Source: Nitrospirota bacterium | GTDB taxonomy: Bacteria; Nitrospirota; Thermodesulfovibrionia; Thermodesulfovibrionales; Dissulfurispiraceae | Assembly: GCA_963710375.1 (NCBI GenBank) | Contig: CAVPZX010000003.1 | Location: 352,001-416,000 of the forward strand | Direction: 5' to 3' | Length of the DNA stretch: 64,000 nucleotides | Shown here: one piece after another, positions 51,845 to 64,000 of the stretch | How the letters are laid out: every line of letters starts with the position of its first letter | Position numbering within the stretch: the stretch's first letter is position 1 | Notes under the pieces: generated by a model | What the model was told of the DNA's origin: nothing | Databases searched by the model: none | Seen by the model: the letters and a program-made list of their open reading frames with translations, nothing else | Program-made: the position numbers and the translations under genes

Positions 51845-53423
51845 TCAGTCCGATTGTTTCTGTCTGATTGCCATGACCGTCTGATCGCGCAACATTTTTA
51901 GGTAGTTTAAATGCTCAGCTGAGACTTTCTGAAAGCCTTCCTTGTCCCCTTCCACATAAATCAACCCTACAGGTTTATTATTTATTATAATAGGCAAAAG
52001 GACAATAAAGGTTTTTTTTAATACCCTGTTTTTGAACCACTCCGGCAGCAGCTTTCTGACAGCGGCAGGCTCGAGGTCCTTGATGACAAGATCATGCTGC
52101 TTCGCTACCGCTATGTTAAAGATGTCGTTCGAATCGCCAATTGGAATAGTAAACCACTTTTTCATTTCCTGAATCCCGCTCCCGATTCCGAACTTGATGC
52201 TCATGCTGGCAAATTTTGTATCCTTTATCAGGAAGAGGACTTTTCCGTCCCCTGACAGACTGCATGCCTCTGTAAATAGTTTCCAGCACAATCCTTATTA
52301 TATCGTTCAGCGAGAAACTGCTCAATAATGAACAAGTGACATCGTGCAAGCCGTTTGAGAATATGCTCTCGGGGGTATCTTCTTTTTCAGATCCGGCAAT
52401 AACATCAATCGACTTTAGTTGTTCAGATGTAAAGTCCGCGTGTAGAGGTCCTGCAACCGTTGCTGACGGTTCGACCACCTTATCCGACCAGGTCATCAAC
52501 TGCCTGTTAAAAGGAACACTATCCAGGTTGATATGAAAAATAGTCGAAAACTGATTCAGCTCTTCAAGACTTTCATTAATAACACCGGTTATCACCTTGC
52601 GGTTCAGCCCGGAGAAAGTAGTCTTGAACATGTCGGCAAGTTTGCCAAGCCTCTCATCCATCTCCTTCTTTTCCGAACTGCTCGATAGTATGTTCGATAT
52701 TTCATTGGAAAGGGAAGCAATGCTAATGAGCTGATTGATCTCATCGGACGAGTCTTTGACTTCCGTTCTGCTGAGTTTGTGCATGCTGCGAACGATCTTG
52801 GTCGGGAAATTCCATCCCTTGGCTATTGCCATGCCTATCTCCTCATATCTCCCGCCGAGGACCGAAAGGGCAGCCGCATCTTCTGAAATACCTCTTTGAC
52901 GGCTTACAGATTTTATCTCCTTTATTGTTTCAGGCAAGGCAAAGGATATCAGCATCTTCCCAAAATTGTGGAGCAGCGAACAGATAAACGCCTCTTCCTT
53001 GTTCTCAAAAGATACCTCGCCGCATAACTTCTGGGCCAGGAATCCGCTGTAAAAAGATTTGATCATAGTATCCAGATGCTCGAGATTTGAATCGCCCTCA
53101 CGGAAATGACCAAAAAGCATTAACGTAAGGCAAAGATTCTTGATGTTTTCAAATCCAAGCAGATTGACCGCACGGGAAATAGTAGTAACTTCCCCGAACT
53201 GGGAATAACTGACGCTGTTGACAACTTTTATGATCTTTGACGTCAATGCATAATCCCTCAAAACAATATTGGCTAATTCAGTAACAGAGGCGTCTTCGGC
53301 AGCCTTCAACTGATTAATCATGTTCATGGTATTAGACATGGCAGGAAAGTCACCGTTTTCCTGCAAGCGTCCTAAAATAACATCTTTAACACTTTGTTGC
53401 GCCCCACGCATGACGAACTGCAT
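51845..53423 (-). CDS. HDOD plus GAF-like protein, split by an apparent 1-bp insertion near 52259 (about 525 aa when restored)
   Basis: HDOD motifs (DFPAM, LTSKIIKVVNS, LLHNFGK); C-terminal domain continues in ORF 51845-52291. Confidence 0.85.
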
Positions 53424-53568: not shown

Positions 53569-54948
53569 TTAAGATTCATCCTCACCTTTTTCCAGGTTAT
53601 ATTTTTTAAGTTTTCTCCATAGAGATACCCTGTCTATGCCGAGTATCTGCGCTGCGAGTGTCTTGTTGTCTCCGACCTCTCCGAGCACCCACTGGATATA
53701 GGTCAACTCCTGGTCCTCGAGAGAGGGTATTGTACCCCGCTTTTTCCTGAATGTCTTAATGCTTAGCTCCCTGAGGTCCTCCGGCAGGTGGGCAACCTCT
53801 ATTGACGCACCATTGGAAAGCGCCACGCCACGCTCGATAATGTTTTCAAGCTCCCTGACATTGCCCGGGAAATCGTAATTCATTAACAGCGCAATAACGT
53901 CCGGCGCAATCTCCCTGACAGGCTTCTTCATCAGGGTCGCGTACTTGTTAAGGAAATAGTAACTCAAGATGTGGATATCTTCTTTTCTCTCGGAAAGTGG
54001 AGGAAGGTACAATGAAACGACGTTGAGTCTGAAATAAAGGTCCTGTCTGAAGTTGCCGCTTTTAATGGCATCGGAGATGTCCCGGTTTGTGGCTGCAATG
54101 AATCTGACGTCAACTTTTACAGGCGCCGTTGCACCGAGACGAAGCACCTCCTTCTCCTGGATTACCCTGAGAAGTTTTACCTGCATAGAAGCCGGCATCT
54201 CGGTGATCTCGTCCAGGAAAAGCGTACCCTCCGAAGCCATTTCGGTCAGTCCTTTTTTCATGGTCATCGCTCCGGTAAAAGCGCCTTTTTCATGGCCGAA
54301 GAGTTCGTTTGAGAGCAGCTCCTCGGTAAATGCGCCACAGTTAATAGCGAAGAAGGGGCCATTGGAGCGGGCGCTGTTATTGTGTATGAATTTGGCAAGA
54401 ATCTCCTTGCCTGTACCGCTCTCCCCGCTGATGAGGATGTTACAGTCAGTAGGTGCTATCTGTCGTGCTGTATCGAGAAGCCGCTGCATGGACGGGTCCT
54501 GAGTAATGATCTTGACTTTGCCTTCATAGGTTTCGATCTGCTCCCTGAGCTGGATATTCTCCCGCTTCAGACGGACTTTTTCGAGGGCCTCTTTCACGAC
54601 CAGCCGCACCTCGTCCAGTTTGAATGGTTTGGCTACGTAATAAAACGCCCCCAGTTTAATTGTGTCGACAGCGGACTTCAAGGTTGCATATCCGGTGATC
54701 ATGATGACCTCGGTGTCGGAATGAAGTTCCCTGCAGCGTTTCAGTATCTCCAGACCGTCAACTTTTTCCATTTTCAAATCCGTGAGCACCACATCGAAAT
54801 GTTCTTCGTATAGGAGTTTGAGGGCGTTTTGTCCGCTTTGTGTGCCGGTGACGTTGTACCCCTCTTTTTTCATGACATGTTCAAGATTGTTAAGCGCCAC
54901 TTTTTCATCATCGACAATTAATATTCTTGCGTTATTCGGCATTGTCAT
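53569..54948 (-). CDS. Sigma54-dependent response regulator (REC-AAA-HTH, NtrC family)
   Basis: GESGTGKE, GAFTGA, LFLDEI, Fis-type HTH. Confidence 0.96.
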   Translation of the reverse strand: MTMPNNARILIVDDEKVALNNLEHVMKKEGYNVTGTQSGQNALKLLYEEHFDVVLTDLKMEKVDGLEILKRCRELHSDTEVIMITGYATLKSAVDTIKLGAFYYVAKPFKLDEVRLVVKEALEKVRLKRENIQLREQIETYEGKVKIITQDPSMQRLLDTARQIAPTDCNILISGESGTGKEILAKFIHNNSARSNGPFFAINCGAFTEELLSNELFGHEKGAFTGAMTMKKGLTEMASEGTLFLDEITEMPASMQVKLLRVIQEKEVLRLGATAPVKVDVRFIAATNRDISDAIKSGNFRQDLYFRLNVVSLYLPPLSERKEDIHILSYYFLNKYATLMKKPVREIAPDVIALLMNYDFPGNVRELENIIERGVALSNGASIEVAHLPEDLRELSIKTFRKKRGTIPSLEDQELTYIQWVLGEVGDNKTLAAQILGIDRVSLWRKLKKYNLEKGEDES

Positions 54949-54963
54949 TACTCTCCTCTTTGA

Positions 54964-56472
54964 TTACTCTTTGCCTGTTCCTCTCGGTATGGGCAGGCGA
55001 ATAAGGAATATGGTACCGCTGCCAGGTTTGCTATCGACTGCTATGCAGCCGTCGTGTTCTACTATGATTTCATGTACAATGGATAACCCGAGCCCGGAAC
55101 CTTTCCCAACGTCTTTTGTAGTAAAAAAAGGATCGAATACCTTGGGCAACACATCGGCATCTATACCCGATCCGGTATCCGATATCTCTATATCAACGGT
55201 ATCGTCTTCAACAGTGCACTTACCATGATACTTCAGGTAATTGTATATCTCCGGTTCGTCTTCGTGCGCTTTCTCGATAGCACTCCGCCGCTGCGCCCTG
55301 ACATAGACTATGCCTTCGTCTGGAATAGCTTCGATGGCATTTTTGATCAGATTAAGAAAGACCTGCTGAATCCGCTGTTTGTCGGCGAATATTACCACGT
55401 CGTTTGGCACACTGACTTCTATATCGACTTTTGTCGGCACCTGCCCTTTTACAAAACGTATGGTCTCTTCAATGAGGTTTTTAAGCGGCAGCGTCTCTTT
55501 CTTGAAATCCTTGTTCCTCGAGAACTCAAGCAGCGACTTGACGATATTCCTTGCCCTGTCTGTCTGTTCGTCGATCTGTGAAAGGAGTTCCTTCTTATAC
55601 TCCATGTCATCCTCAGCGACTTCTTCAGTTAGAATCTGGCATGAGGTTGAGATATTTGAAAGAGGGTTGTTGAGTTCATGAGCTATTCCTGACAGCAGGG
55701 TACCCAGCGATGCAAGTTTCTCTGTCTGGATAAGGTGCCTCTGCCGCAACTCGAGTTCCTTGAGCATTTTATTGAAAGCATTTGTAAGCGACACAATCTC
55801 CCTGTCTTTTGAGTCCATGTGTATGATTTCGAACCGTCCTTCCGCAATTGTTTCCATGCTTTCTTCGAGAAGCTTAAGCGGCTTGATCACCATCCTGGTC
55901 AGTATCTGCCCCACTACAATACCCAGAAGCGAAAGAGAGATGATCGAAATAATAAGCATGCTTTGTGAATTGTGAAGCTGGACCTGGAGACGTTTTCTCT
56001 CGGTATTGGCAATATCATCAGCCGCGTCCACGATCTCTTTTCCCGTCTTTCTGATCATGCTGTCGAGGACTTCCTTATTCGATGTCCCGATTTGCGGGTT
56101 TGCATATTGCTCCATCATTTTTTTGTATTCCTTCAGGTTTTGGAGCAGCATCGCGGTTTGCATTGGCCGGGCAACAGTATTGAATTCAGCGAGATTGTCC
56201 TCAAGGGATTTTTGCGCCTGGCTCACATAATTAAGAGTTTCCCGGTAATCGGATTCATGCTTGTAGAGGAAAAAGTTCTTCTCAAAGCGCCGCGCTTCAA
56301 GCGTAGAATTGAAAAATTCAGTGATGGTTTTACCGAAAAGGATTTTTTTTTCAAAAAATCTGAGTTCCATAAATGAAAAAACGGAAAGGGCGATGATTAT
56401 GGGGACAATTCCATAATAGCCGAATGCTATTTTTTGCCTGATACTCGGCCGGTACCTGAATTTTTTCAGCAT
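54964..56472 (-). CDS. Membrane sensor histidine kinase (four-helix-bundle-type sensor, HAMP, HisKA)
   Basis: RRFEKNFFLY, GIAHELNNPL, FFTTK, GSGLGL. Confidence 0.95.
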   Translation of the reverse strand: MLKKFRYRPSIRQKIAFGYYGIVPIIIALSVFSFMELRFFEKKILFGKTITEFFNSTLEARRFEKNFFLYKHESDYRETLNYVSQAQKSLEDNLAEFNTVARPMQTAMLLQNLKEYKKMMEQYANPQIGTSNKEVLDSMIRKTGKEIVDAADDIANTERKRLQVQLHNSQSMLIISIISLSLLGIVVGQILTRMVIKPLKLLEESMETIAEGRFEIIHMDSKDREIVSLTNAFNKMLKELELRQRHLIQTEKLASLGTLLSGIAHELNNPLSNISTSCQILTEEVAEDDMEYKKELLSQIDEQTDRARNIVKSLLEFSRNKDFKKETLPLKNLIEETIRFVKGQVPTKVDIEVSVPNDVVIFADKQRIQQVFLNLIKNAIEAIPDEGIVYVRAQRRSAIEKAHEDEPEIYNYLKYHGKCTVEDDTVDIEISDTGSGIDADVLPKVFDPFFTTKDVGKGSGLGLSIVHEIIVEHDGCIAVDSKPGSGTIFLIRLPIPRGTGKE

Positions 56473-56539
56473 GATTTCACTCTATCATAAGAATATTGCA
56501 AAAAGCAACGATTGAGCAAAATGATGTAACATTAGGAAA

Positions 56540-56654
56540 TAGTGAAACGTGAAAGGTGAATAGTGAATCGTCAATGGCATGCAAATCGGCGGCGTCTTAA
56601 TGCTTGTCCTTACTTTTTCTTTTCACCTTTCACTTTTCACGATTCACCTTTCAC
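56540..56654. repeat. Hairpin of inverted heptamer repeats (GTGAANN / NNTTCAC)
   Basis: gtgaaacgtgaaaggtgaatagtgaa ... ttcacctttcacttttcacgattcacctttcac. Confidence 0.85.
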
Positions 56655-56660
56655 TGTTGT

Positions 56661-58677
56661 TTATGTCAGCACAAGATCGATGACTTCATTAATGGTATCG
56701 GCGAAATGAATAGTCATGCCGTCTGTTACTTCGGCGGACAGCTCGTCCATTTCAGCCTTGTTGCGTTCAGGAAGAATAACGGTTTTTACATTAGCCCTTT
56801 TAGCTGCAAGGACCTTTTCTTTGATGCCCCGGACCGGTAATATCCGCCCGGTCAGCGTAATCTCTCCGGTCATGGCCACATCGCGTCTGGCTGGCCTCCT
56901 GGTCAGCAGCGAAAAAAGCGACATGGCTATGGTTATGCCTGCGGACGGGCCGTCTTTTTGTATGGCTCCGGAGGGCACATGAATATGTATATCATGGTGC
57001 TCAAAAAAATCCTCCGGTATGCTGTAAAGGGCGGCATTGCTTCTCACGAAACTCAATGCTGCCTGCGCCGATTCTCTCATAACTTCGCCAAGGGAACCGG
57101 TCATTATAAGTTCTTTCTTCCCCTTCATGGCTACAGCCTCGACAAAGATAATGTCGCCTCCCGCTTCGGTGAGTACAAGGCCTGTGGCAACTCCAATTTT
57201 GTCTTTCTCGCCGGCAACTTCGTAGTAATGATGCCCCTGTCCCAGATATCGAACAACATCACCGGGGGCGATAGTTACAGTATTTGGTCTCGCATCGGGG
57301 GAGCTTGAGCACTGCACCATTTCTCTTGCTATCTTTCGGCATATGGTCGCAATCTCCCTTTCCATGTTCCTGGTGCCGGCTTCATGAGTATAATTATCTA
57401 TAATGCTTGCAATAGCGTCTTGAGTGAACACAACAGGGCCGTATTCGATACCCTTTTCCCTGAGCTGCCTGGGGACAATGAATTGAGAAGCGATCTGTAT
57501 TTTCTCTTCGCGCGTGAAGCCGGTGAATTCTATCACTTCCATGCGGTCTCTAAGCGGCGCAGGAATGTTTTCGATCGTATTGGAAGTCAGAATAAACACG
57601 ACAAAGGAAAGATCAAATGGGACATCAAGATAGTGGTCAACAAAGCTGTGGTTTTGCTCAGAGTCCAGGACCTCAAGCAACACTGAGGAGGGATCTCCCT
57701 TGAAATCACGACCTATTTTGTCGAGTTCATCCAGCATGATGACAGGATTGGAAGATTCCGCCCTCCGTATCTCTTCGATAATCCTTCCGGGTTTAGCGCC
57801 AACATAAGTACGGCGGTGGCCCCTCAGACTCTGCTTCGTCTTTCAGTCCGCCCAGCGCTATCCTGGCGAATTTTCTTCCCAGGGCGTCGGCGATGGCTTT
57901 GCCCATGGATGTCTTGCCTGTGCCGGGAGGGCCTGCAAAGCACAGGACAGAACCCCTGATGTTCTGAGTTTTTGTCCTGCTTTCCAGTGCCTCCCGAACA
58001 GCGGTGCGTACTTCCTCGAGTTTGAAGGGTTTCGAAATATAGGAGAAAGCGCCTTTCTTCATTGCCTCTACAGCAGAAGAGACAGTGGCATACCCGGTCA
58101 CCATTATGACCTTGGTATCGGGCCGCGTCTGTCTTATGCTTTCAAGTACTTCCAGGCCGCTGACACCCGGCATTTTAAGATCCGAGATTACCACATCGAA
58201 TGAAGCCTCAGAAAGCTTTGCCAAAGCATCGCGGCCGTCCTCCGCGGTCAAAACTTCATACGCGTCTTTCTGAAGAATGTGCGACAGGTTTTTTCTCGCG
58301 ACTTCTTCATCATCGACGATAAGTATACGCGATTTTCTGTTCATGATAAGGGATTTGACCGCCAGATGTTCGAGAATCCTCTCTTTGATTGCAGGCAGGC
58401 CATAATGGTTCCTGTCCAGTATGGCTTTAGCGTTTGCAAGATCAATGCTGTCCTCAGTCTTTTTATTCCATGGAAGTGCCAGCAGGTAATCGATATAAGT
58501 CATGCCTATGGAATATTCCGTGGTAGAGGGACTTATCCTCGAAAGGCCCTCCAGTTCATGAAGGGCGATCTTTTCGACCCGGGGTGGCATATTGGCAGAG
58601 GCGATCGACTCCCGGAGTTCATCGAGCGCCGTCTCTTCCCGATGCTCGTCGCCATCGTTCTTTTTAAAGAATTTCAT
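56661..58677 (-). CDS. lon: Lon protease variant with no N-domain and an inserted REC domain; apparent 1-bp insertion at 57828 (about 671 aa when restored)
   Basis: LPW, HYGL..IKERILEHLAV, REC, GPPGTGKT, restored DEAELRGHRRTYVGA, LDELDK, KDGPSAG, GIKEK. Confidence 0.9.
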
Positions 58678-58937
58678 TGTTTGTATATTATCACAGATGC
58701 GTCAAATTAGGAATTTTAGTAGTGGGTCAGTGGTAATCTGCAGCCAATTTGCACAAGATGCAGAATATAATGAAATTTATTTGCGATACATAGTAAAATG
58801 ACACCTATAGAGCGTTGCAGACCACTAAGCTCTCGGATGTCTTCAAGGTGAGTTTCTTGCCGGAATGACATTTCAACAATTTTATGTAATGGATTTCGGG
58901 TTATCTTTATTTCTTGAAAGTTAACCCGGAGGTAATT

Positions 58938-61900
58938 ATGAGCCATAACTTATTTATAGATCAGATGGACTATATTTATTTCATCTATGGTCTTGCCTTT
59001 ATTCTGCTTGGTGCGGTGACTCACTTTCTGTCCCGTATTGACAAAAGGCTGCCCTGGACATGGCTCTGCATGTTCGGTTTTATTCATGGCTTCAACGAAT
59101 GGCTGGATATGTTGGCTTTCAGCCTGGGTAACAGTACTATATTCAGTCTTCTGCGTATGTTGTTAATGGTCGCTTCTTTTCTTCTTCTCGTGGAGTTTGC
59201 AAGAAATGGAACCTCTGCGTTGCAGGGGAGAAATGTGTCTAAGTGGGTTCTAGTGCCCTTTCTGGTGTTAGCTGTCTCTGGCGCATTAACAGGGATCGAG
59301 GGGTTAACTGTATCCTGCCGATATGCACTTGGCCTACCTGGAGGGATCTGGTCAGCATGGGTTTTATATCGCTATTCAGATAAGCCCGATCATTTGGAAA
59401 GCGGACGGTGGCTGACATATGCAGCCTTGGCAATGGCTTTTTATGGTTTTTCCGCAGGTTTTATAGTACCGCCATCAGCATTTTTCCCAGCATCTCAGAT
59501 CAATTATGATTCGTTTCTCGCGACTGCTGGCTTCCCGGTTCAGGCAATGCGGTGTTTTCTGGCACTAGTTATCACTCTTGGTTTGTGGCAGCACTATCGT
59601 TCGTGTCATGAGTCTGTCATTTCAATATGGCAAAGATTCTCGTCATAGGCTCATAGGCCGCCTGCTGGTAATTGCTGTCATCTCTGTGCTTGCAATAGGT
59701 TGGGTAATGACAGGCTATTTTGGAAAAGTCGGATTCAACAATGATCTGGCACGTGGGCACTCGAGGTTAAAGTATTATCAGATCCATTTATCTTCCCTGC
59801 TCCAGACAGTTGACAAGGTCGCGATTGCAGTTTCTGAAAGCCCATCTTTGAGCTCAATGACTTCAACTGGAGGGGGTATCAATGAAAAAGCTGTTAATTC
59901 AACTGTTGACCGATACAGCAGCCTTGTTCCGGATACAATCATCTACATCATAAATACTGAAGGGATAACTGTTGCGTCATCCAACCGAAACACACCATCG
60001 AGCTTCGTCGGCGTGTCTTATTTGAAGCGCCCATATTTTTCGGAAGCCTTGAAGGGAACTGCTTCGTTTTATGTAGCTATGGGAATTATGACAAAAAAAC
60101 CGGGCTATTTTGCGAGCTACCCCATCCGTAATCGGTCCGGAAGAATCACAGGGGTAGCGGTTGTCAAATATACCTTAGATGTTGCAACTGAAGGTGAAGA
60201 GAATTACTTCTTGATTGATTACAATGGAATAATTCTTGGCGCCTCCAATCACGATCTGATTATGCGTGAGCTCTGGCCGCTCTCCGGGAATACCCGTCGG
60301 TTTCTGAGAGAGTCCGGGCAGTATCCCTTGTCAGGCAAGGCGCCTCTTTTGGCTGAAACACCTGAAAATGAAAAGCATGTTTATTATGCCGGCAAGCAAG
60401 CCCGCTTTTTGATGATGGAAGTTCCTGACAAGAGAATGTCTTTTGTTTCTATCGGACAGTTCCGGGATCATAAACTGATGCGTCTGTTGGGTATCGGAGG
60501 CACCTTATTCATTGTCCTTCTCAACATCGGCGTCTTTATTATCGAAGAGCATCAGGAGGCGGATAAAGACGCTCTGCGAAAATCGGAATATGCACTCCGC
60601 AGAGTTTTTGATCATGTATATGACGCTGTTCTTGTCCATGATCGGAACGGAGACATAATGGATATCAATGAGCGGGCACTCGCCCTATATGGCGTTACGC
60701 GTCAGGACGCTCTAAAAATGAGTATTATTAAAGATTTCTTAGGAAAGGACAATCCTGCGGATAAGGTTTCTTTATTGTGGGAAAAGGTGCTTCTCGGAGA
60801 GCCTCAAAACTTTGAATGTAAGGCTCGCCGACCCGGGGATGGCACTGAGTTTTATGTGGATATGTTTTTCGACAGGATGGAACTTTCTGGAAGGCATGTT
60901 GTTGTTGCTACAGTCAGGGACATTACTGACAGCAAGAGGACAATGGAAGAGCTTCAGAAACTTTCACAAGCGATACGGCAAAGTGCATCTGCTGTTACCA
61001 TAACAGACACGCAGGGCAGGATAGAATTTGTAAATCCGCAGGCTGAAAAAGTTACGGGATATTCGGCAAGCGAGGTTTTGGGGCAAAACCCAATGATGTT
61101 CAGATCCGGAATTCACCCCGATGAGTTTTACAATTCCATATTCGAGACCTTGAGGTCAGGGCACGAGTGGGTCGGCGAGATATGCAACAGGAACAAAAAA
61201 GGTGACTTATACTGGGAGCACTCCTCTATCGCTCCTGTATTGAACCAAGAGGGCAATATCACTCATTACATCCTGGTCAATGAAGATATAACTGAGCGAA
61301 AACAGATTGAAGAGGCTCTCAAGAAGGCGAAGACGGCTGCGGAAGCGGCGAATGTGGCAAAGAGCGATTTTCTGGCAAACATGAGCCACGAAATCCGCAC
61401 CCCATTGAACGGCATAATGGGGATGACCGGTTTGCTTCTAGACACAGGGCTTTCTGAGGAGCAGCGGAACTATGCCGAGATGCTGCGCTCAAGCGGCGAG
61501 CTGTTGCTGGGCCTGATCAACGACATCCTTGACTTCTCCAAGATAGAGGCAGGCAAACTGGAGATAGAGACAATAGAGTTTGATCTGAGAAACACGCTTG
61601 AAGAGACTGCGGAGTTTCTGGCCTTGAGGGCCCACGAAAAGGGTCTGGAGTTAATATGCCGGATAGACCCCGGCGTCCACACATTCCTAATAGGCGACCC
61701 TGGCCGGCTTCGCCAGGTATTAGTGAACCTGATAGGGAATGCCATCAAGTTCACCTCAGTGGGCGAGGTGGTTATCGAAGCGGTGACGGAATATGAGAGA
61801 GACGGTCAGGTAGCGGTGCGTTTCAATATTAGGGATACTGGCATTGGGATACCAGAAGACAAACTGCCTTTATTGTTTGACAGTTTTCAGCAGGTTGATG

Positions 61901-63330
61901 CCTCTACATCGAGGAAGTTTGGAGGCAGCGGCTTAGGGTTGGCAATATCTAGGCGTCTGGTTGAGCTAATGAATGGCAGGATAGGGGTTGAAAGCATAGA
62001 AGGGAAGGGTTCCAACTTCTGGTTTACAGCAGTGTTCGATAAGGGGAGTCAGCCGGACAGGGGAGAAATGCCTCCATTTGCCGATATCAGCGGGGTGAGG
62101 ATACTGTCAGTAGACGACAATGCGGTGAACCGCATCGTAATTGCAGAGCAGATGAAGTCGTGGGGGGTGCGCCATGCCGAGGCCGGGGGAGCTTTAACGG
62201 CAATGGAGATGCTCCATGCCGCTCAAGCTGAAGGGGATCCTTTTCGGGTTGTAGTTACTGATATGCAAATGCCTGGGATGGATGGCGAAGCCCTTGCCAG
62301 GGCCATCAAGGCAGACCCAGTTTTGAGGGACACTTTGCTGATTATGCTGACATCCAGTGGAGTGAGGGGAGATTCAAAGCGGCTTGCGAGCCTTGGATTT
62401 TCCGCATATCTAACCAAACCTGTAAGGATGTTCCAACTGCACGACTGCATAGCCGCAGTCCTTGGCGGGAGCAGTCTGCATGAAAAGGCCCAGGAATCCG
62501 CCATTATTACGAAGCATTGGCTTCGTGAGGCATCCAGGCAGAATGCGCGCATTCTACTGGTGGAGGATAACAAAGTGAATAAACTGGTGGCAGAGGGCAT
62601 TCTGGGCAAATTGGGGTTTATTGCTGACACCGCTGACAATGGCCAGCAGGCGATCAATATGCTGGAAGCCGCTTCTTACGACATAGTCTTCATGGATGTG
62701 CAGATGCCTGTTATGGATGGATATCAGGCGACCATGGCTATCCGGGGTGGCAAGACAAAGGCAGCGAATCCTAATGTACCTATTATTGCAATGACAGCCC
62801 ATGCCATGATGGGTGACAGGGAGAAATGCCTGCAATGTGGGATGGACGATTATATCTCAAAGCCGATCTCTCCGAGGAAGTTGTCCAAGGTGCTCGAAAA
62901 GTGGCTGCCACAGGCGCGGGTCAAGTTGCCGGCGGAAACTGATACGACCCATGATAAGACAGCAGCGGCAGTAGAAGCATTGCCGGTCTTTGACTATGCA
63001 GGGCTTATGGAACGAATAATGGATGACAAGGGTTTGGCTGGAACAATCGTTACGGCATTCATGAAAGAAATACCCTGGATGGTTGATGACCTCAGGGTGC
63101 AGATAGCGCGTGGCGATGCTGGACTTGCGGGCAGACAAGCCCACAAGATCAAGGGGGCAGCGGCCAACACAGGATGTATGGCAATGAGCGCCATAGCAGC
63201 TGATATGCAGAAGGCCGGAGAACAAGGGGAAATGGAGACACTGATTGCACTTATGCCTGAGCTTGAAAGCCAGCTTGAGTTACTGAAGGCTAAAATCAAA
63301 GACTCGGGGATAGTAGACAGGCGCAGTTGA
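58938..63330 (+). CDS. Hybrid sensor histidine kinase copy 3 (multi-TM sensor, dCache-like, 2xPAS, HisKA-HATPase-REC-REC-HPt); apparent 1-bp insertion near 59613
   Basis: ORF 58914-59648 ([18 protein letters not shown] membrane sensor) overlaps ORF 59578-63330; GGAGG RBS before ATG 58938. Confidence 0.88.
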
Positions 63331-63399
63331 AAGCGTCCCGATATGGCATTATTAATAATCCTTTTCATGATATAATTTTCTTAGCACAGGAGGACATTC

Positions 63400-63780
63400 T
63401 TGGAAGGACTAAGAATATTGGTAATAGACGATGAATATATCACGCGGATTTTTATTAAGAGTTGCCTGCAAATGTCTTTCCCGGGCTGCATAATAGTTGA
63501 GGCGGCCTCCGGACAAGCTGCATTAGAAAAGATTAAGAGCGAGCCATTCCATATTGTGCTGTGCGACTGGCAATTGCCGGATATAAGTGGGGTCGAAATA
63601 CTCGAATGGGTCAGGGTCGCATCGGATACAAAAAATATGCCCTTCATGATGATAACGGGTGATAGCAACAGGGAACACATTACCAAAGCGATATCATTGG
63701 GGGTCTCGGGTTATGTCATCAAGCCATTGGACTGCGCGAGTCTGTCACAACGTATCGTAGCAGCATTGGTCCCAAAGTAG
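63400..63780 (+). CDS. CheY-like single-domain response regulator
   Basis: VIDDE, LCDWQLP, ITG, IKP; AGGAGG RBS with TTG start. Confidence 0.9.
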   Translation: MEGLRILVIDDEYITRIFIKSCLQMSFPGCIIVEAASGQAALEKIKSEPFHIVLCDWQLPDISGVEILEWVRVASDTKNMPFMMITGDSNREHITKAISLGVSGYVIKPLDCASLSQRIVAALVPK

Positions 63781-63820: not shown

Positions 63821-64000
63821 TCAGTCACCTGCCTTGAGTATGCCCGATGCGGCAAGCGCCAGAATTAAAACCTCAATAACGGAGAAGACGACGTACAGCA
63901 TATCTTTCTTTCTGTATAATATCGGGATGATCCTCAGATAACACAAGATCGTCACACCGGCAAGGAAAGCAATGCTGACGAAATTAAGAAAATCACCTTT
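63821..64000 (-). CDS. C-terminal fragment of a DUF1634-like membrane protein (partial)
   Basis: Hand translation KGDFLNFVSIAFLAGVTILCYLRIIPILYRKKDMLYVVFSVIEVLILALAASGILKAGD*. Confidence 0.7.
   Translation of the reverse strand, partial: KGDFLNFVSIAFLAGVTILCYLRIIPILYRKKDMLYVVFSVIEVLILALAASGILKAGD

Follow-up and report, generated by a model that had tools for sequence, protein, structure and literature searches.

An intact Lon protease with an internal receiver domain and its two-component neighbours in a Nitrospirota bacterium

What is a receiver domain doing inside a Lon protease? The question is raised by a stretch of 64,000 nucleotides (hereafter the window) from a Nitrospirota bacterium of the Dissulfurispiraceae (GenBank assembly GCA_963710375.1, contig CAVPZX010000003.1, positions 352,001 to 416,000 of the forward strand), which carries at 56661..58677 on the minus strand a gene for a Lon protease into which a receiver domain (REC) is inserted, here called REC-Lon, next to a sensor histidine kinase gene and the gene for a sigma54-dependent activator. 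RssB and CpdR, receiver-domain adaptors for ClpXP in which aspartate phosphorylation is tied to regulated proteolysis, are stand-alone proteins that act on ClpXP and its substrates, whereas the receiver of REC-Lon lies within the protease subunit; a phospho-switch inside the protease motor would differ from such adaptors as a way of regulating proteolysis. With slightly better than even confidence, we propose that the intact REC-Lon is likely phosphorylated, together with the activator, by the neighbouring kinase, and is likely switched on against a small group of targets, most likely a peptide of 58 amino acids (aa) belonging to the same regulon.

Both the architecture and the idea of phospho-gating have been in print since 2011, and the discovery value is therefore modest. 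What is added here is the recognition of Lon as an optional module and of an Arg-rich peptide tail that tracks with lon. The system in the window is real, intact and widespread, and the central claim of the 2011 description is a proposal. The peptide offers a definite candidate for the substrate and for its degron, and with it a hypothesis 15 years old can be tested with purified proteins and in a sulfate reducer amenable to genetics.

Anatomy and integrity of the receiver-domain Lon

Once an extra base at 57828 is disregarded, the REC-Lon gene encodes 671 aa in a stop-free frame comprising a three-helix bundle, alpha0, the inserted receiver, the AAA+ module, the lid and the Lon protease domain (domain names follow PMC10643698). 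In Pfam scans, the minus-strand open reading frame 58677-57793 matched Response_reg at aa 118-228 (57994..58326, minus strand; E 3e-34) and the beginning of AAA, and the frame 57827-56661 matched the remainder of AAA, Lon_lid and Lon_C (E 4e-80); the REC-Lon frames gave zero matches to Lon N-domain families. The receiver motifs are in place (D122/D123, phospho-acceptor D166 at 58180-58182, T194 and K216-P217), as are Walker A (a motif in the translation, aa 249-256; 57910..57933, minus strand), pore-loop Y291, Walker B D316-E317, R378 and the Ser-Lys dyad (region 56814..56945, minus strand; S578 at 56943-56945, K621 at 56814-56816). When a homologue 89% identical to the N-half of the window's Lon (P0003; TIGR00763 score 712.6, cut-off 608) was aligned with Bacillus subtilis Lon (3m6a), its residues 16-110 corresponded to 8-102 and its residues 237-670 to 103-530, which puts about 126 inserted residues at a single position, after alpha0 and before the Walker A strand. 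A sequence-only reading of this DNA had described a Lon that starts at the three-helix bundle, lacks the N-domain and carries a complete receiver before Walker A, with the phospho-site residues present and the Walker A/B and Ser-Lys dyad motifs intact, and each part of that description is borne out. The gene is thus confirmed as an intact, N-domain-less Lon with a receiver inside the protease subunit.

REC-Lon shares with the LonA proteases of Escherichia coli, B. subtilis and Meiothermus the three-helix bundle, the AAA+ module with a pore-loop Tyr, the lid and the Ser-Lys protease; Walker A/B, sensor-1, the Arg finger, pore-loop Tyr and Ser-Lys residues of canonical LonA are all present, and there is no membrane segment. 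It differs in the receiver inserted before the Walker A strand and in lacking an N-terminal globular domain or long helix, with a median of 51 residues before the conserved E54 among homologues (more than 150 in only 1 of 165). Judged from these sequence features, REC-Lon is LonA-derived and, because the N-terminal globular domain and long helix are absent, not a canonical LonA. Its starting point, the three-helix bundle, is that of the engineered Meiothermus LonA fragment AAAP (residues 242-793), and MtaLonA without its N-domain still breaks down disordered casein, whereas it does not degrade folded proteins that are damaged (PMC8087443).

An AlphaFold2 monomer model of a further homologue (P0005), built on a 145-sequence alignment, reached a mean predicted local distance difference test (pLDDT) of 85.8 and a predicted TM-score (pTM) of 0.78, superseding a poor model from a 20-row alignment (pTM 0.45). 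Foldseek placed Lon structures at the head of its matches (target-normalised TM-scores as high as 0.89-0.92), and the insert is therefore predicted to leave the Lon core undisturbed; REC helix alpha5 continues directly into the Walker A strand in the model. Among 37 PDB sequences that matched with E no higher than 1e-30, not one was named or sized as a REC-Lon fusion, and the receiver insert was absent from both of the two PDB alignments inspected.

The sequence-only reading had also worried that a real frameshift might leave the gene dead. Base 57828 is, however, missing from the contigs of four out of four sequencing runs from two studies (two of the runs may be the source of the window DNA, and run X4 belongs to the other study), and the apparent frameshift is an assembly error. 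Real or programmed frameshifting in REC-Lon is rejected on the evidence of the same four runs.

The fusion is common and strongly conserved. Every one of the best 120 of 4292 protein matches carries receiver and Lon domains, and 119 of these 120 span 97% of the N-half at 59-89% identity. A fixed-gap DNA pattern over the REC/Lon junction occurs in at least 118 species genomes; among the 118 matches listed, 78 are Nitrospirota and 30 Thermodesulfobacteriota, and 78 of the 80 flanked loci hold a collinear REC-Lon reading frame. Intact REC-Lon was found in 12 of 30 relatives, REC-Lon in 36 of 121 genomes sampled in the window's class and 32 of 201 sampled in its phylum, and collinear REC-Lon in 46 of the 121 genomes of a Desulfovibrionales sample. 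Across 165 aligned homologues from two phyla, no variation is seen at D166, K216, P217 or any of the ATPase and protease residues, position 194 is T or S in all and position 213 is Y or F in 163; for D122/D123, conservation was required by the DNA search pattern in 28 of the 165 rows. No form with an N-domain was seen among the fusion matches examined in a search of 50%-identity representatives, a search that was swamped by multi-receiver proteins and gained a few diverged fusions and dead paralogues. The sequence-only reading had proposed a search for this fusion and its gene neighbourhood, and intact homologues that have both are common.

The dead paralogues, from other genomes (L160-L165, L167-L170, P0138, P0147 and P0159; 371-424 aa), were counted as nine genome loci and three library proteins. 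They combine the three-helix bundle and an intact receiver with degenerate Walker A/B, have no pore-loop Tyr, lid or protease, and are mostly convergent with another histidine kinase. We met no description of them in the literature on the DVU3303-type system.

The three-component locus and its two receivers

Directly downstream of lon, and co-oriented with it on the minus strand, lie a 502-aa sensor histidine kinase (54964..56472, minus strand) with HAMP, HisKA (H265) and HATPase_c domains and a pair of hydrophobic stretches (at about aa 15-40 and aa 169-196), and a 459-aa sigma54-dependent response regulator (53569..54948, minus strand) with REC (D57), an AAA+ domain bearing GAFTGA and a Fis HTH (REC, Sigma54_activat and HTH_8 in Pfam), the counterpart of DVU3305. 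Both domains and orientation agree with the sequence-only reading. No sigma70 promoter or terminator was found between lon and the kinase gene.

This arrangement has been described in Desulfovibrio vulgaris Hildenborough as the "three-component system" DVU3303-DVU3304-DVU3305 with the target operon DVU3302-3298 (PMC3333781). In that work, phospho-gating of the DVU3303 Lon was already proposed in 2011, DVU3305 was mapped to its own operon and to DVU3302-3298, its binding to the target operons was shown in D. vulgaris, and orthologues were named in Thermodesulfovibrio (PMC3333781); a DVU3305 regulon is also listed in PMC4641369. Shared with the window are the order of a Lon-containing response regulator, a histidine kinase and a sigma54 regulator, and the operator motif; the D. 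vulgaris targets include genes for a small hypothetical protein, a membrane transporter and UspA. Gene sizes given in PMC10102598 (DVU3302, 180 nt; DVU3301, 543 nt; DVU3303, 2109 nt; DVU3305, 1356 nt) fit the 58-59 aa peptide, the USP-like protein, REC-Lon and the activator. Identity between the window and Desulfovibrionales loci is 42-54% for Lon, 33-38% for the kinase and a median of 48% for the activator. One Desulfovibrionales locus (L199; genes of 59, 702, 492 and 451 aa) carries, at a spacing of 81 bp, the two operator sites published for DVU3303, and when its kinase and activator were used as queries, those of the window were the best matches in this genome. Based on these correspondences in sequence, the window locus belongs to the DVU3303-type three-component system. 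A novel architecture is ruled out by the match in gene order, sizes and operator to the family described in Desulfovibrio in 2011, and the caution of the sequence-only reading that the fusion might already be catalogued was well placed.

The window differs from D. vulgaris in that the divergent target operon is not beside lon, its genes being scattered and a hybrid-kinase block lying upstream of lon, and in that the operator stands before the kinase. The palindromic site at 56495..56509 matches 9 of 10 positions of the DVU3305 operator GTTGC-N5-GCAAC (motif from PMC3333781, Tables S7 and S9), lies 23-37 bp before the kinase start, is the sole such site in the window and is likely an autoregulatory site of the activator. 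Its placement is unusual, as 2 of 75 relatives carry a site behind lon. Within 300 bp upstream of lon, an operator was found in 43 of 82 loci; coding controls gave 1 of 82 and shuffled sequences 0.65. Among Desulfovibrionales loci, 16 of 20 have an operator there. The strict sigma54 promoter pattern was found at 0 of 82 loci toward lon and at 3 of 82 in the divergent direction, and in neither of the window's two intergenic stretches.

Kinase-regulator specificity is set by positions in alpha1, beta4-alpha4 and beta5-alpha5, from which 15 contact positions were taken. Among 113 receivers of the genome, that of the activator ranks first in likeness to the Lon receiver (56% identity, 11 of 15 contact positions), and the remaining 111 reach at most 47% identity and 6 of 15 positions. 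The closeness of the two receivers noted in the sequence-only reading is therefore beyond chance. Cognate activators across loci share the alpha1 signature A-K/R-N-H with the Lon receiver, whereas a second activator type present at some loci (nine pairs) matches it at merely 5-8 of 15 positions. Since the shared kinase-contact residues exceed those of any other pair in the genome, one kinase probably serves both receivers. Of the earlier suggestion that one kinase may switch both transcription and the protease, these residues thus favour the shared kinase; that the protease itself is switched is something we infer.

The protease is not a fixed part of this system. In the sample from the window's class, the activator was found in 35 of 36 REC-Lon genomes and also in 35 genomes without a detected full REC-Lon (in total 70 genomes for the activator versus 36 for Lon, among 121), and in many of the Lon-less activator genomes the same locus is intact with lon alone missing. 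Because activator loci occur without lon, Lon is an optional module on the two-component system. Among 64 loci of at least 10 kb, 45 have kinase and activator inside the locus and 47 a TauE or DASS transporter.

The hairpin peptide and the proposed switch

This genome (G000) holds two copies of the 58-aa peptide gene, one at G000:C3:417318-417491 (L137:2319-2492, minus), about 1.3 kb past the window end, and one at G000:C2:720328-720501 (L136:829-1002). Across loci, the family consists of frames of 55-66 aa, mostly with strong ribosome-binding sites, which encode a conserved helical hairpin and a basic tail usually terminating in L-R-A-D/E or L-R-A-P-G. No named family was matched in Pfam, NCBIfam or a protein atlas.

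After removal of seven duplicate loci, and reassignment of one locus initially scored as Lon-less with a full tail that turned out to carry a frameshifted lon, 114 Lon-bearing and 41 Lon-less loci were scored with a tail-free profile, which detected the peptide in 78 and 18 of them, respectively. A tail with at least four Arg was present in 74 of the 78 Lon-bearing versus 1 of the 18 Lon-less loci, and a hydrophobic-Arg end motif in 72 of 78 versus 2 of 18. Within a single genus, the tail was present in two lon genomes and absent in two lon-less genomes. On the activator tree, lon state changes about nine times; across seven independent pairs, the Arg count gave 6.0 concordant and 0 discordant pairs (median p 0.03), and the end motif 3.7 concordant and 0 discordant (p 0.125). 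The association suggests that the peptide is a dedicated substrate or adaptor of REC-Lon, and the Arg-rich tail may be the handle for Lon, a possibility to which we give somewhat less than an even chance.

In the mechanism we propose, the kinase would phosphorylate both the Lon receiver and the activator receiver, and the activator would turn on the operons of the peptide, the USP-like protein and the TauE or DASS transporter, as suggested by the operator motif. Phosphorylation of D166 probably alters Lon activity, activation being the likelier direction, and the signal could be relayed through helix alpha5, which leads into the Walker A strand, to switch the protease. Because it lacks the N-domain, the enzyme would perform no general quality control; substrates with disordered tails would pass straight into the pore, as with AAAP. 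The helical hairpin of the peptide would act on a partner independent of Lon, and Lon itself would serve as an optional feedback module on the two-component system. Should the peptide damp the kinase or the activator, clearing it would amount to positive feedback, which fits the same-sign phenotypes of D. vulgaris: PMC10102598 reports cofitness above 0.9 for each pair among lon, kinase and regulator, and in chlorate the loss of any of the three aids growth and loss of the target transporter DVU3299 harms it. A fuller version, which we hold only tentatively, is that phospho-licensed REC-Lon destroys the 58-aa DVU3302-family peptide through an Arg-rich C-terminal degron that decays upon loss of lon, and that the dead paralogues reuse the scaffold without proteolysis.

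Several points weigh against this proposal. The literature found holds no phosphotransfer, ATPase or proteolysis data on REC-Lon, and no biochemical study of it was found in the literature searched, most subscription papers lying outside that search. The cofitness in D. vulgaris may stem from polar insertions, as lon is the first gene of its operon, and the chlorate phenotype of DVU3299 loss is opposite in sign to that of lon, kinase or regulator loss, which simple operon activation does not explain. The peptide went undetected in 36 of the 114 Lon-bearing loci, and a Lon-less genome (G039) retains the Arg-rich tail. On independent pairs, four of five tail definitions were non-significant (median p 0.125-0.25), and the tail trait and its cut-off were defined post hoc on the same data; since the traits were set after the data had been seen, the association of tail and lon is suggestive only. 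No operator occurs within 300 bp upstream of lon in the window, and the strict sigma54 promoter pattern precedes just 4 of 36 peptide genes.

The peptide might alternatively be an adaptor, its tail docking on Lon and its hairpin pairing with a hairpin of USP-like proteins, which would thereby be delivered for degradation. Such a hairpin is common to the peptide, the 160-aa USP-like protein (itself just a weak Usp match, below cut-off), two further USP-like families and one 100-115 aa family of these loci, and the tracking of the tail with lon would suit an adaptor as well. The hairpin peptide is nonetheless retained in 18 Lon-less loci, where there is nothing to deliver to, and we regard delivery of USP-like proteins as unlikely. 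We judge equally improbable that the phosphorylated Lon receiver pairs with the activator receiver or binds the kinase, destroying or draining them and so shutting the response off. The closeness of the two receivers would allow it, and a Lon without N-domain needs other means of substrate choice; a negative regulator, however, would be expected to be opposite in phenotype, and all three D. vulgaris genes have the same sign with cofitness above 0.9, subject to the polarity mentioned above.

A slightly poorer case can be made for a constitutive protease whose receiver serves as an interaction module or a sink for phosphate, with no gating by phosphorylation. The dead paralogues, in which the bundle and an intact receiver are kept although the ATPase is degenerate and lid and protease are absent, imply that the bundle-REC module can have a role without proteolysis, and the Lon core is modelled as folding normally beside the insert. 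However, insert position, phospho-site and protease residues are jointly invariant in 165 of 165 homologues from two phyla, and alpha5 is predicted to run directly into the Walker A strand, both of which speak for gating. Finally, that REC-Lon is a pseudogene in this organism is very improbable: the assembled sequence carries the frameshift at 57828, but the four runs lack the extra base, an intact copy is present in 7 of 9 genomes from its genus, and the housekeeping lon of the same genome, which has an N-domain (G000:C6:57817-60305; L139), is also split over three frames, pointing to what are likely further assembly indels.

Layout of the regulon and neighbouring genes

In this genome, regulon genes are scattered (G000 C2:720 kb and C3:416-417 kb). 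A run of peptide, TauE transporter and 137-aa membrane protein genes (G000:C3:415821-417491), co-oriented with lon, lies just past the window end, so that only the 3' end of its last gene, that for the 137-aa protein, falls in the window (63821..64000, minus strand); the gene order of this run is the same in the relative G002, and here the hybrid-kinase block separates it from lon. The second peptide gene and the gene for the 160-aa USP-like protein lie on contig C2 behind a pair of operators 87 bp apart. Relatives repeat the order USP, TauE, 90 aa, 160 aa, peptide / lon, kinase, activator, and L010, L017, L020, L034 and L063 are examples of relatives that preserve the published divergent order. 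At the Desulfobacterales loci L018, L027, L041, L042, L088, L091 and others, a CitMHS/TrkA-C (DASS-type) transporter replaces TauE, and kinase and activator stand at the end of the divergent operon; cultured Desulfobacter strains are among them.

Elsewhere in the genome, a perfect single operator match at G000:C4:244117 precedes a gene cluster that by eye resembles hydrogenase/sulfhydrogenase subunits and is a possible further target of the activator. The block 58914-63780 of the window is missing at the corresponding place in G002. About ten more copies of the kinase-receiver-receiver-Hpt core (61279-63317) of the 1250-aa hybrid kinase, with 87-96% nucleotide identity, are present in the genome, which points to recent expansion or homogenisation. 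Between lon and the kinase gene lies a short inverted repeat (56615-56655) that has matches on unrelated contigs too, in each of the four runs, and is possibly a small dispersed repeat. Downstream of the activator, and outside the conserved locus, an HDOD-domain gene (52116-53423) has two paralogues on the same contig at 92% and 71% nucleotide identity.

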